The notes: generated by a model not told the origin, from the letters alone. A stretch of DNA of 32,000 nucleotides from Chlamydiales bacterium (GCA_965261025.1 OZ253438.1:390001-422000), one strand, 5' to 3'. Shown: positions 24,924-28,818, counted from the stretch's first letter. Made by a program: numbers and translations.

Positions 24924-24969
24924 ATAGCGGCAGACAGACTTGGAACAACAAGTCAGGAATTGTGATTCT
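24924..24969 (-). repeat. Diverged copy of the 3' half of the tRNA-Met(CAU) gene (att-like remnant, left island border)
   Basis: Gap-free alignment of 24924-24969 with 28745-28790 (tRNA 3' end through the anticodon loop), same orientation. The first 11 nt are identical (atagcggcaga) and I count 34/46 matches by hand. Confidence 0.6.
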
Positions 24970-24976
24970 TCTTTAA

Positions 24977-25008
24977 CTTTTGGACTTTAGTGGCCTTGGG
25001 TTGGTCTT
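24977..25008. repeat. Border motif R1 (cttttggactttagTGGCCttgggtTGGTCttt)
   Basis: 24977-24995 is identical over 19 nt to 27746-27764, and the next 13 nt match 9/13. It lies between the tRNA fragment and the MazF-like stop. Confidence 0.7.
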
Positions 25009-25016
25009 TAGCTTTT

Positions 25017-25394
25017 CTAACCCAAAATTTGCTTCAAGTTTCGTTGTACTTTAGTTCTGTCTTTTTTGGAAAGTTTCCCTAAACCTCTTATGACCAAACG
25101 ATGATCTAAAGTAAATAATTTGAATCGAATTAACGAAGGATTAGAGAGACCGCTTGGTTTCAGATCTTCTATAACTATGTCACTAGGCTAAAGATTTTGA
25201 TCTCCTCTGAAAGAAGTAATCATAGCCATAATACTCATTCCTAATTTCTCTCCAAAAGCATTTGATTTAGACAAAACCAAAACAGGACGCCTTTTCTCCC
25301 TTTCTATATCTGTAAAGGGAAAGGGAACCACAACAATCTCATATTGTTTATAGGTCTTTGTAGGCTTCTTCATCTTCTTCAGAGTCCCATTCAT
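25017..25394 (-). pseudogene. PemK/MazF-family toxin interrupted by an in-frame TAG
   Basis: The track ORF 25188-25394 gives ...YEIVVVPFPFTDIEREKRRPVLVLS...ITSFRGDQNL then TAG (25188-25190). Reading on in the same frame gives PSDIVIEDLKPSGLSNPSLIRFKLFTLDHRLVIRGLGKLSKKDRTKVQRNLKQILG* ending at 25017. Together these make a normal-length (about 118-125 aa) PemK-like protein. Confidence 0.7.
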
Positions 25395-25617
25395 TCATAA
25401 CCATATCTATCCCCTCTAAGTAAGCGAGATCCAAAGAAGCACTTTTCTTTAAAACTACTGTACCATCGGGTAATAACTCATAAATTACCTGGTCTCCTTG
25501 TTTGAGCTTTAATCGATCTCTTATTTTTTTAGGTATAGTTGCCTGGTATTTTGAGGTTAGCCTAGAAGGGTACCTACCTACCGATGGTTTCTTCCTTCTT
25601 TTTAGTTTTGCTCTCAT
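25348..25617 (-). CDS. AbrB/SpoVT (MazE-type) antitoxin
   Basis: YQATIPKKIRDRLKLKQGDQVIYELLPDGTVVLKK is a SpoVT-AbrB swapped-hairpin motif, followed by an acidic tail (NEWDSEEDEEAY). I prefer the ATG at 25617, which has AAGGAG 7 nt upstream, to the track start at 25671. Overlaps the toxin start. Confidence 0.75.
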   Translation of the reverse strand: MRAKLKRRKKPSVGRYPSRLTSKYQATIPKKIRDRLKLKQGDQVIYELLPDGTVVLKKSASLDLAYLEGIDMVMNEWDSEEDEEAYKDL

Positions 25618-25700
25618 AGAAATGCTCCTTAATAATGAAGGGTACCGTAATACAGTATTACCTTTCAACATTCCTTCCTAAAATCTTCATTAAAAAAATT

Positions 25701-25730
25701 TTTAGTTTTTTTGGCCTGTTATTGGCTCTT
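25701..25730. repeat. Border motif R2 (tttag...TGGCCtgttatTGGCTcttt), partial copy
   Basis: tggcctgttattggctctttc resembles the tggccctgtattggccttcct part of R3. It sits in the divergent region between the MazE-like gene and antidote-1A. Confidence 0.45.
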
Positions 25731-25780
25731 TCTATTATTTTTTCTTTTAATTATTGTAGCTTAAATGCTACACTTGTTAC

Positions 25781-26068
25781 ATGAAAGATGAAATTGATAT
25801 TCAATTAAAAGAAGGGCTTACTAAAATAGATCCCTCTAAAATTATGTTAGATAAGACATTTCTTATTTCTGCTCTTTTAGAGTGTTTTGGAGATAGTGAT
25901 CCTGATGCATTCCTTGAAATTTTGGACGGATATATTATTGCCCATAACAAAACTGCCTTTGCAAAAAAAGCTGCTATTTCAAGAAGCACACTGTATGACA
26001 TGCTCCATGGAAGAAAAAATCCCACTCTTCGGGTATTAACTCAATGTATCCATGAATTAGTATCATAA
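25781..26068 (+). CDS. HTH antidote-like protein, paralog 1, copy A (no adjacent killer gene)
   Basis: 95 aa. ...AFLEILDGYIIAHNKTAFAKKAAISRSTLYDMLHGRKNPTLRVLTQCIHEL has the layout of the addiction-module antidote family (TIGR02684-like: helical N-part, HTH, R.sLY..L...gNPt...l). About 95% identical in DNA to 28194-28455. Confidence 0.7.
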   Translation: MKDEIDIQLKEGLTKIDPSKIMLDKTFLISALLECFGDSDPDAFLEILDGYIIAHNKTAFAKKAAISRSTLYDMLHGRKNPTLRVLTQCIHELVS

Positions 26069-26130
26069 AAGCACCCATGAAAAAACTAAAAAATTATAAA
26101 TCAGCACTAGTCGAAAGATTAAAAAACTCT
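25807..26130. repeat. Duplicated segment, copy A (324 nt)
   Basis: Aligns without indels to 28194-28517 (constant offset 2387). I count about 15 mismatches, most of them in the first 115 nt. Confidence 0.9.
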
Positions 26131-27636: not shown

Positions 27637-27688
27637 TTGATGTAATCGTTAACATGATCCACTCTTTTCAAAAGAGCTATGCTTCCAA
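27617..27688. repeat. Duplicated 'tail' segment, copy A (last 20 nt of the Inc-like ORF plus 52 nt downstream)
   Basis: Identical to 28518-28600 except for an 11-nt insertion in the latter. Confidence 0.9.
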
Positions 27689-27745
27689 AGTATAAGCTAC
27701 TTGAAACCTTTTAATCTATTTAGATCTTTTGCTGGGTTTCGTGGT

Positions 27746-27778
27746 CTTTTGGACTTTAGTGGCCCTGTATTGGCCTTC
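27746..27778. repeat. Border motif R3 (cttttggactttagTGGCCctgtatTGGCCttcc)
   Basis: Its first 19 nt are identical to R1. It contains a direct TGGCC...TGGCC repeat about one helical turn apart and lies about 70-100 nt upstream of the killer ORF. Confidence 0.7.
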
Positions 27779-27817
27779 CTGAAAAAACAATTAATTTTTT
27801 GACTTAATTTCTACTAC

Positions 27818-27846
27818 TTGCCAAACTGTCCGATATTTCGTACAAT
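27818..27846 (+). promoter_or_regulatory. Sigma70-like promoter candidate TTGCCA-17-TACAAT
   Basis: TTGCCA (27818-27823), a 17-nt spacer, then TACAAT (27841-27846). The -10 element overlaps the TTG that opens the killer ORF, so a transcript from here would start inside the annotated 5' end. Confidence 0.3.
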
Positions 27847-28160
27847 TGGACTTATCCATTATAGATATAAGTAGGACGCCAGATTTTGAAAGGTGGTTTG
27901 CAAGAGAGTCTCTAAAATCACAAGCTCAAATAGTAGCAAGGCTAACGAGGATACAAATTTATGATCACTTCGGTGATTATAAAGTATTGGGGGAAGATTT
28001 GCTGGAATTAAGATGGAAGTCTGGAAGAAGGGTCTATTTTACTATTTATGAGGATAAGGGAAGGCATGTTTTACTTCTATTAGGAGGAAATAAAAATGAC
28101 CAGAACAAAGACATTAAGAAGGCGAAAACACTTATCTCAAAATACAAAAAAGAATACTAA
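27846..28160 (+). CDS. Addiction-module killer protein (RelE/HigB-like, TIGR02683-type); start codon questionable
   Basis: IIDISRTPDFERWFARESLKSQAQIVARLTRIQ...GDYKVLGEDLLELRW.SGRRVYF...LLLLGGNKNDQNKDIKKAK follows the family pattern M.I..T..F..W......A.I..RL.RL..G..GD.K.vG.gv.ELR...G.GYRvYF....LLL.GGdKs.Q..DI..A. There is no in-frame ATG, only TTG at 27846 without an SD. ATT at 27858 sits where the family's Met normally aligns. Confidence 0.7.
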   Translation: MDLSIIDISRTPDFERWFARESLKSQAQIVARLTRIQIYDHFGDYKVLGEDLLELRWKSGRRVYFTIYEDKGRHVLLLLGGNKNDQNKDIKKAKTLISKYKKEY

Positions 28161-28455
28161 GCGAGCTTCTTTTACGCCGATTACTTTAAAAACAAAAGAA
28201 GGGCTTGCTAAAATAGATCCCTCTAAAATTATGTTACATAAGACATTTCTTATTACTGCTCTTTTAGAGTGTTTTGAAGATAATGACCCTGAGGCATTTT
28301 TGGAGATTTTGGATGGATATATTATTGCCCATAACAAAACTGCCTTTGCAAAAAAAGCTGCTATTTCAAGAAGCACACTGTATGACATGCTCCATGGAAG
28401 AAAAAACCCCACTCTTCGGGTATTAACCCAATGTATCCATGAATTAGTATCATAA
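28096..28455 (+). CDS. HTH antidote-like protein, paralog 1, copy B (downstream of the killer)
   Basis: The C-terminal 87 aa are near-identical to copy A. ATG 28096 is preceded by AGGAGG (28083-28088) at 7-nt spacing, supporting this start even though it lies 65 nt inside the killer ORF. This gives a Lys/Arg-rich N-terminal extension absent from copy A. Confidence 0.7.
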   Translation: MTRTKTLRRRKHLSQNTKKNTKRASFTPITLKTKEGLAKIDPSKIMLHKTFLITALLECFEDNDPEAFLEILDGYIIAHNKTAFAKKAAISRSTLYDMLHGRKNPTLRVLTQCIHELVS

Positions 28456-28600
28456 AAGCACCCATGAAAAAACTAAAAAATTATAAATCAACACTAGTCG
28501 AAAGATTAAAAAACTCTCAATTACAGCAACTACCTAATTGATGTATAGTTGTTGTAATCGTTAACATGATCCACTCTTTTCAAAAGAGCTATGCTTCCAA
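28194..28600. repeat. Duplicated segment, copy B (composite)
   Basis: 28194-28517 matches 25807-26130, and 28518-28600 matches 27617-27688. The junction at 28517/28518 corresponds to loss of about 1.49 kb (26131-27616) relative to copy A. Confidence 0.9.
28464..28541 (+). pseudogene. Truncated antidote paralog 2 (first 18 codons fused to the tail segment)
   Basis: MKKLKNYKSTLVERLKNS equals the first 18 aa of the 26077 gene with one substitution (A->T at residue 10). It then reads QLQQLPN* across the deletion junction. Confidence 0.75.
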
Positions 28601-28745
28601 CTAACATTGGAGCTAGCGCCTTATTTTTTGACGATTTTGCCTTTATATCAAGATTTATGACAAAATTGGGGTCAAAAGCATTTTTTACTAAAAAACAGAA
28701 ATTTTAAATAAGAGCAGATAGATAAATTCTTGACTTTGAGCAACA

Positions 28746-28818
28746 TAGCGGCAGATGGACTCGAACCAACGACCCACGGATTATGATTCCGTTGCTCTAC
28801 CAACTGAGCTATACCGCC
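28746..28818 (-). tRNA. tRNA-Met (anticodon CAU), elongator type; tRNA-Ile2 (lysidine) not excluded
   Basis: Hand-folded cloverleaf. Acceptor GGCGGTA/TGCCGCT (two G-T wobbles), D arm GCTC-AGTTGGTA-GAGC, anticodon arm ACGGA-ATCATAA-TCCGT, T arm GTTGG-TTCGAGT-CCATC (one mismatch), discriminator A. No encoded CCA. Confidence 0.85.

Follow-up and report, generated by a model that had tools for sequence, protein, structure and literature searches.

A 3.8-kb island in the genome of a Chlamydiales bacterium lies behind a tRNA-Met(CAU) gene and is closed at its far end by a decayed copy of the 3' half of that same gene. It was found in a stretch of 32,000 nucleotides (GCA_965261025.1 OZ253438.1:390001-422000)—hereafter the window, from whose first letter all positions are counted—where it spans positions 24,924 to 28,818. 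We consider it probable that the island goes back to a tyrosine-recombinase element at the elongator tRNA-Met, that the integrase of this element was lost and the displaced tRNA half drifted, and that the cargo later underwent exchange and duplication. The orthologous tRNA gene, downstream of leuS and waaA, is a recurrent integration site across the Chlamydiota.

Displaced tRNA half and composition of the island

Two intact tRNA-Met(CAU) genes stand in tandem on the minus strand, at 28746-28818 and 28832-28906 (ARAGORN, Rfam), and an Rfam scan of 24.5-29.1 kb returned only these two tRNAs and no other match. The gene at 28746-28818, which scores 65.6 bits with the Rfam tRNA model, anchors the island and corresponds to its attL side; from its sequence features (GGCGGTA...), we take it to be of the elongator type. 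Its tandem partner at 28832-28906, which is not the target, reads CGCGGG..., carries GGG/CCC in the anticodon stem, and is presumably of the initiator type.

The distal boundary of the island is a displaced tRNA 3' half at 24924-24969 on the minus strand—a decayed attR relic—which sits 95 nt upstream of a BMT5-like gene. This half matches 28745-28790 in the same orientation and without gaps at 34 of 46 positions, the first 11 bases being identical, exactly as the initial annotation had described. Read on the tRNA strand, the similarity runs from two bases inside the 5' anticodon stem, through the anticodon loop, to one base past the discriminator; no similarity to the tRNA 5' half or to the tRNA 3' flank was found around the displaced copy. 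One boundary of the island is thus formed by the intact target gene and the other by a direct-orientation 3' fragment of the same tRNA, the repeat being confined to the tRNA gene and starting at a known crossover position—the anticodon loop.

The match is far above what shuffled controls yield. The best other gapless match of the 46-mer in the window, on either strand, reaches 25/46—the paralogous initiator tRNA excepted, which also stands at 34/46—and when the 8.7 kb next to the tRNA were shuffled 100 times, the maximum was 27/46. The binomial probability of at least 34/46 is 3e-12, or ~2e-7 after correction for all positions, and the observed score of a local alignment was unreached in 500 shuffles.

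The composition of the island was compared with that of the rest of the 32-kb window, from which 85 background windows of 3.8 kb were taken. Its guanine-cytosine (GC) content of 34.9% is 2.2 points lower than the 37.1% found elsewhere, the background windows covering a range of 36.0-38.7%. The di-, tri-, and tetranucleotide distances of the island from the rest exceed those of all 85 background windows, and the trinucleotide z-score—calculated in windows of 1.2 kb—lies at 2.4-4.9 over ~24.9-28.8 kb and at ~0 on both sides. The edges of this shift coincide with the repeat and the tRNA gene, and an atypical composition is characteristic of islands in tRNA genes (tDNA islands). The deviation of GC content and k-mer usage from the flanks, by which the initial annotation had proposed to judge its own reading, is hence present, and the background is regained at both edges.

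A recurrent integration site in the Chlamydiota

Hotspots of integration at tRNA genes are ordinary in bacteria. A metagenome scan for the tRNA sequence gave 80 loci, with waaA upstream in 49 of them, and islets were sought in the 58 loci with at least 1.2 kb of downstream sequence. In about 13 further loci, copies of the tRNA 3' part enclose an islet; in six of them the match is 43-45/45. Among the genome loci, L009 encloses 3.9 kb in a perfect 44-nt repeat (44/45) with the same boundaries as in the window—from the anticodon loop to the 3' end—and the repeat of L006 is 33 nt long and has a single mismatch. In the L009 islet, 1.5 kb are poor in genes, and a six-frame Pfam scan of this part revealed no integrase remnant. 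Such a remnant is present in L098 (repeat 43/45, 2.0 kb, oriented 3652-5700), where a tyrosine integrase is found in three pieces that match PF00589 with an E-value of 8.5e-14. Further islets are those of L105 (45/45, 2.2 kb), which holds Bro-N and DUF2442 proteins; L118 (45/45, 2.3 kb), with a Gp49/HigB-like toxin and a helix-turn-helix (HTH) antitoxin; L147 (43/45, 1.2 kb), with only a Gp49/HigB-like toxin and an HTH antitoxin; L151 (44/45, 1.1 kb), with two open reading frames (ORFs) without family match; and L172 (44/45, 1.8 kb), with a ParD-like antitoxin. The repeat of L164 (1.4 kb) matches at 37/45, and in L154 a 35/45 copy starts 86 nt past the tRNA, a homologue of antidote A—one of the antitoxin genes of the window island—lying ~0.5 kb downstream of the tRNA. 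The toxin–antitoxin cargo of L118 and L147 belongs to a superfamily that is also present in the window island.

The tandem tRNA pair exists in all repeat-bearing loci with enough upstream sequence, L147 and L151 beginning too near the tRNA to tell. Only the elongator tRNA is repeated: no repeat of the initiator-tRNA 3' half was found in 11 genome loci. L098, L147, and L151 have 50-140 nt in common beside the distal repeat, including the motif GCTGAATGCTGTGATTGCTAGTA at 6-7 nt from the tRNA fragment, and this common arm sequence therefore makes the integrase-less L147 and L151 relatives of the integrase-bearing L098. An inverted copy of GCTGAATGCTGTGATTGCTAGTA is additionally found near the tRNA in L098, and CTGTAA repeats lie near the motif in this family. 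For two islets, occupied and empty sites can be paired: the distal flank of L105 directly follows the tRNA in L169 and L125, and the distal flank of L118 does so in L142.

The initial annotation had regarded such islands as not common in these bacteria, which is contradicted at this very tRNA locus by the further repeat-bounded islets. In the literature searched, this tRNA-Met site is nowhere described as a hotspot of the whole phylum. In L149, the 52-nt search pattern—which is longer than the tRNA 3' half—matches a second time at 2438-2489, upstream of the tRNA pair and at the contig end, where ARAGORN calls no tRNA.

A cassette shared with a distant relative

Relatives of the window were gathered by a profile scan of genomes; a genome scan with WaaA alone gave no relative. 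The nearest other genome is the metagenome-assembled genome L001 (its contig is shared with L003), with an identity of 65% for WaaA and 76% for LeuRS. L001 has the same leuS-waaA-tRNAfMet-tRNAMet order as the window. After the tRNA pair, ~9 kb of other genes follow, and only then the BMT5-like gene. This cargo encodes a 417-aa protein, the same toxin–antitoxin cassette as in the window (with a frameshifted toxin), a 413-aa membrane protein, an endonuclease/phosphatase-family protein, an MFS transporter, and a PARG-like protein. In ten genome loci from more distant Chlamydiota, waaA and both tRNAs are likewise retained, and leuS is detectable upstream in most of them. Behind the tRNA, the cargo differs in every lineage examined and includes, for example, an autotransporter, a serine dehydratase, HepT/MNT with ankyrin, GNAT, a protein kinase, and Fic.

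The toxin–antitoxin cassette (27717-28520 and 25807-26396 in the window) has a DNA identity of 90-92% to 12790-13857 of L001, non-coding upstream sequence included, and the adjoining tRNA-waaA-leuS segment one of 73%. Synonymous divergence (dS) between the window and L001 amounts to 0.19-0.38 for the antidote genes and to 1.7-2.4 for WaaA and LeuRS. Given the low dS of the cassette and the high dS of the core genes, the sharing of the cassette must be much more recent than the split of the two lineages, and its similarity indicates gene flow between chlamydial lineages. A tie of the cassette to tRNA-Met everywhere was considered and rejected, as homologues in Anoxychlamydiales lie behind suf genes or beside a Tn5-like transposase.

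The island is composite, with a toxin–antitoxin cassette of more recent date than the boundary repeat. Counted on one lineage, the 12 differences of the displaced tRNA half give a Jukes-Cantor distance of ~0.32. If this half was once identical to the tRNA, it would, as a rough estimate, be older than the common ancestor of the cassette and much younger than the split from L001, which is consistent with L001 being without a fragment. This dating fails if the tRNA-like segment of the element already differed from that of the host at integration. The initial annotation had taken the island for an old, immobilised element; the composite make-up, with its younger cassette, qualifies this view.

Cargo and flanks of the island

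The island holds addiction modules, duplicated fragments, and one membrane protein, and no integrase or excisionase ORF; this content had been listed correctly from the start. Starting at the distal end, a mazF/pemK-type toxin pseudogene (25017-25394, minus strand) matches PF02452 in a six-frame search over profile positions 1-109/109, across an in-frame stop. This stop is a single TAG at 25185-25187, as read directly from the codons, and the gene is otherwise full-length. The accompanying MazE/PrlF/AbrB-type antitoxin gene (25348-25671, minus strand; PF15937, PF04014, NF007429, TIGR01439) is intact, and a TAG in mazF next to an intact antitoxin suggests a recent inactivation of the toxin. On the plus strand, the distal copy of antidote A follows (25781-26068, 95 aa), a diverged HI1420-like HTH protein, whose toxin gene is deleted and which is 95% identical over 324 nt to 28194-28517. 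Antidote B (26077-26370, plus strand, 97 aa) is an intact member of the HI1420 family, with 65.5 bits for TIGR02684 (cut-off 53.7) and a match to PF21716.

The gene at 26707-27636 (plus strand) encodes a membrane protein of 309 aa with one bilobed hydrophobic segment and without a Pfam or NCBIfam match. In its translation, residues ~60-105 form two hydrophobic stretches that are split by WIYTHN. Such a bilobed hydrophobic domain of about 40-60 residues is the hallmark of the chlamydial inclusion-membrane (Inc) proteins, which are exported by type III secretion and localise to the membrane of the inclusion, and the product is hence predicted to be Inc-like.

Behind it, a sigma-70-like promoter (TTGCCA-17-TACAAT, 27818-27846, plus strand) precedes the gene of an HI1419-type toxin ('killer') of the RelE/ParE family (27846-28160, plus strand), which scores 64.3 bits for TIGR02683 (cut-off 62.85). 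The start codon of this toxin is ATA here (27841-27870 region) versus ATG or GTG in L001, L083, L086, and L087. Upstream, the sole start codon in frame is a TTG at 27846, which coincides in part with the −10 hexamer TACAAT, and the toxin may be without translation. The toxin gene overlaps by 65 nt with the proximal copy of antidote A (28096-28455, plus strand, 119 aa), which shares 91% amino-acid identity with the copy of L001; against TIGR02684, antidote A scores only 29 bits. Next, the first 46 nt of a truncated second antidote B are fused to a duplicate of the 3' end of the Inc-like gene and its tail (28465-28600, plus strand, duplicating 27616-27688). A unique spacer of 145 nt (28601-28745), for which no ORF or family match was found, leads from the cargo to the tRNA 3' end. 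By analogy to L098, whose degraded integrase starts ~130 nt from the tRNA, the integrase of an intact element would be expected in this spacer.

Two duplications connect these blocks: 25807-26130 recurs as 28194-28517 at 95%, and 27616-27688 as 28517-28600. The arrangement fits a unit of toxin, both antidotes (A and B), and membrane protein that was duplicated in tandem. Of the two copies, the distal one would then have lost its toxin, while little of antidote B and of the membrane protein would have survived in the proximal one. Each of the four antitoxin genes is intact, and both toxins look disabled. This pattern fits a decaying addiction module, which may once have aided the persistence of the island.

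A 32-nt motif, D5 (CTTTTGGACTTTAGTGGCC...), occurs on the plus strand at 24977-25008—7 nt inside of the tRNA fragment and 9 nt past the mazF stop—and, by sequence comparison, with 88% identity at 27746-27777 (plus strand), upstream of the toxin promoter. A weaker copy lies at about 25699-25731, and L001 has one at 13808-13826 on the minus strand. D5 is possibly the relic of a recombinase arm site. A role as toxin–antitoxin operator was rejected, as the homologous pairs of L083, L086, and L087 have no such motif in front of them, although their promoter region is kept. Next to the inner copies of D5 (at ~27.69-27.75 kb and at 25.6-25.73 kb) and to the L001 copy, no tRNA fragment above shuffles was found. 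The D5 copies bracket each gene block, and the islets of L098, L147, and L151 carry their conserved arm motif at an equivalent place near the tRNA half.

On the distal flank, the BMT5-like methyltransferase gene (23989-24828, minus strand) matches PF10354, a family named for a eukaryotic rRNA methyltransferase, and has only 10 matches in a protein search, one of them eukaryotic. Its use as a conserved flank was rejected, since its homologues are found in unrelated genomic contexts; judged from these sequences, it may be an effector-like accessory gene. Just beyond it, the window holds a polysaccharide deacetylase and a glycosyltransferase gene, which in L006 lie ~0.4 kb from the tRNA pair and in L011 4.4 kb from it; in L012, a glycosyltransferase gene only is found at 2 kb. 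Because the BMT5-like homologues occur in unrelated contexts and the distance of deacetylase and glycosyltransferase to the tRNA varies, the distal flank is accessory and not housekeeping. The initial annotation, which had ascribed lipopolysaccharide or housekeeping genes to both flanks, needs to be amended here: the distal BMT5-like gene is a patchily distributed accessory gene. Elsewhere in the window, the ORFs at 8809-10944 (711 aa) and 20337-21647 (436 aa), both on the minus strand, have no Pfam match at E-values up to 1e-5.

Origin of the island

In the history that we favor, a tyrosine-recombinase element would have entered the elongator tRNA-Met gene behind leuS-waaA, at the site in the anticodon loop. 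With the new tRNA 3' half that the element brought along, the original half would have been displaced by 3.8 kb, to its place 95 nt upstream of the BMT5-like gene. The tRNA 3' end reads ...TCTGCCGCTA, and the sequence from 24923 downward, on the tRNA strand, is TACTTTTTGTATTTAAAAAAATG...; the predicted pre-integration junction would join ...TCTGCCGCTA directly to TACTTTTTGTATTTAAAAAAATG..., 95 nt before the BMT5-like gene. Later, the integrase module would have been lost, and the displaced half—freed from selection—would have drifted to 74% identity. The HI1419/HI1420 toxin–antitoxin cassette may have been exchanged with another chlamydial lineage, and the toxin, the two antidotes (A and B), and the Inc-like gene may have been tandemly duplicated as one unit, with each copy partly deleted. 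Both toxin genes would have been damaged and all antitoxin genes kept intact. By analogy to the islets in relatives, we infer that the window island arose by the same site-specific integration and once encoded its own integrase.

This reading as a tRNA-integrated element, which the initial annotation had put forward, is supported by the repeat, the composition, the sister islets, the integrase remnant of L098, and the two islets with empty-site counterparts. Several points weigh against it. A six-frame Pfam search of 24829-28745, with E-values up to 1, matched only toxin–antitoxin and HTH domains and revealed no integrase (PF00589), excisionase, resolvase catalytic domain, transposase, or other recombinase, and the rest of the 32-kb window likewise encodes no integrase, excisionase, or transposase. 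The island hence departs from tDNA islands with an integrase gene inside, which agrees with its having been called decayed. L001 is without a tRNA fragment, its best gapless match being 25/46; a search with the window's own flanks across all retrieved loci found no empty site for the island; and the arm motif of the L098/L147/L151 family is absent from it. Possibly, the distal repeat and the tRNA differed from the outset, in which case the 26% divergence is uninformative on age. Moreover, the lower coding density of the island (~75%) and its internal duplications could cause part of the compositional shift.

The island might also never have had an integrase and have been inserted or exchanged as an att-flanked cassette by a recombinase acting in trans—encoded elsewhere in the genome, on a plasmid, or by a co-resident element—in the manner of cis-mobilizable elements. 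The islets of L009, L105, L118, L147, L151, and L172 have repeats of 43-45/45 without an integrase-sized ORF, several islets (1.1-1.2 kb) are too small for a toxin–antitoxin pair plus an integrase, and L147 and L151 retain the arm sequence of L098 without its integrase. The cassette itself moved between lineages after their split, yet it lies at the same tRNA in both. However, clean deletion of the integrase—a common fate of such elements—explains the same data, and no trans-acting integrase was identified. The distal repeat of the window island is too decayed to function now, and the homologous toxin–antitoxin pairs of Anoxychlamydiales lie away from any tRNA. We hence regard this scenario as unlikely. 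Improbable as well is an origin without any site-specific integration, in which the region behind the tRNA pair would be a tolerant spot that receives accessory genes by illegitimate or homologous recombination, and the fragment would be the remnant of a partial tRNA duplication. The lineage-specific cargo and the missing integrase could be read in this way, and the island itself is tandemly duplicated. In addition, L008 (11416-11800) bears two 157-bp tandem repeats, so that the unit exists in three tandem copies; it contains the tRNA T-arm, the acceptor end, and ~110 nt of 3' flank. These repeats look like a duplication, unlike the att-type repeats elsewhere. In the window, however, the repeat runs from the anticodon loop to the 3' end and leaves the flank uncopied, and the same holds for L009 and six metagenome islets. 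A tolerant spot also does not account for the repetition of only the elongator tRNA and never of the adjacent initiator, nor for the occupied and empty sites and the integrase remnant at the orthologous site. That the 46-nt similarity is a product of chance in AT-rich DNA has nothing but the modest identity of 74% in its favor; it is refuted by the maxima in the window and in the shuffles, by the corrected probability, and by the expected orientation and register, and its likelihood is negligible.

A more far-reaching proposal, to which we give little credence, combines the trans-acting recombinase with the repeated use of the site. The elongator tRNA-Met beside waaA might serve as a cassette-acquisition site across the Chlamydiota, at which small integrase-less units of 1-4 kb, mostly toxin–antitoxin pairs, would be inserted, stacked, and exchanged between lineages by a recombinase in trans. 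A repeat of the tRNA half and a short arm motif—D5 in the window and GCTGAATGCTGTGATTGCTAGTA in L098, L147, and L151—would delimit every unit, and the window island would represent a stack of three units (mazEF, antidotes plus Inc-like gene, and toxin plus antidote), the inner repeats of which have eroded. As no tRNA fragment was found beside the inner D5 copies, such a tandem array of three elements is speculative.

Comparison with known systems

Taken alone, the island is a routine remnant of a tRNA-targeting island, and its value is that of a marker. It marks that a member of an obligately intracellular phylum with a reduced genome (a contig of 1.42 Mb) took up foreign DNA and later remodelled it, and that one conserved tRNA gene is a common entry point for toxin–antitoxin pairs and effector-like or Inc-like proteins across the Chlamydiota. 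The cassette held in common with a distant relative (dS 0.2-0.4 versus ~2 for the core) documents gene flow between chlamydial lineages, and the series from integrase-bearing over degraded to toxin–antitoxin-only islets portrays addiction modules that outlast the elements that delivered them.

Both toxin–antitoxin systems of the island have well-described counterparts. With its toxin and antidote B, both of which pass the curated cut-offs, it resembles the HI1419/HI1420 systems (TIGR02683/TIGR02684), which are defined by such matches in adjacent toxin and antidote genes; an overlap of toxin and antitoxin genes is shared as well. Unlike these systems, the window has two tandem antidote paralogues per toxin, an ATA start codon of the toxin, and one copy of the module without toxin. 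The second system resembles MazEF/PemIK in its mazE-mazF gene order and its domains, but a complete PemK-like toxin behind the AbrB/MazE-type antitoxin is precluded by the in-frame TAG of mazF.

Among chlamydial elements, Pam100G of Protochlamydia amoebophila is an island of 100 kb beside tandem gly-tRNA genes that bears tra genes, transposases, and 17-bp repeats (PMC548262). The two islands share their position at a tandem tRNA pair, direct repeats, and addiction-type genes. Unlike Pam100G, the window island is only 3.8 kb in size, carries only toxin–antitoxin and Inc-like cargo, and is bounded by a 46-nt repeat of a tRNA half.

Phages can carry the same tRNA segment. In the IMG/VR contigs L089-L094, the 45-nt 3' half of tRNA-Met lies beside a tyrosine integrase gene without a complete tRNA gene and is presumably an attP that mimics the tRNA 3' half. 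These contigs are phage-like, encoding a single-subunit RNA polymerase and an endolysin besides the tyrosine integrase; with ~51% GC they are not chlamydial and show only that this tRNA segment serves as an attachment site.

Cis-mobilizable elements (CIMEs) have lost their integration and transfer genes and kept attL and attR (PMC6323972). The window island likewise lies between att-type repeats and is devoid of genes for integration and transfer. Its distal site is, however, decayed (74%) and not an intact att site, and no parent integrative and conjugative or integrative and mobilizable element is known. The sister islets L147 and L151, with repeats of 43-44/45, fit the CIMEs well.

Finally, a regenerated tRNA gene and a displaced fragment mark the ends of the tRNA islands compiled in Islander, where a 3' tDNA fragment with an anticodon-centred attachment site is the commonest geometry (PMC4383910). 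The window island agrees with these in its intact tRNA at one end, its direct 3' fragment at the other, the crossover in the anticodon loop, its atypical composition, and its accessory cargo. It differs from them in that it would not pass the Islander integrase filter, that its fragment is 26% diverged, and that it measures only 3.8 kb. With every testable defining feature of this class except the integrase gene, the window island takes its place among the well-known tRNA-integrated islands as a small, decayed member without an integrase.

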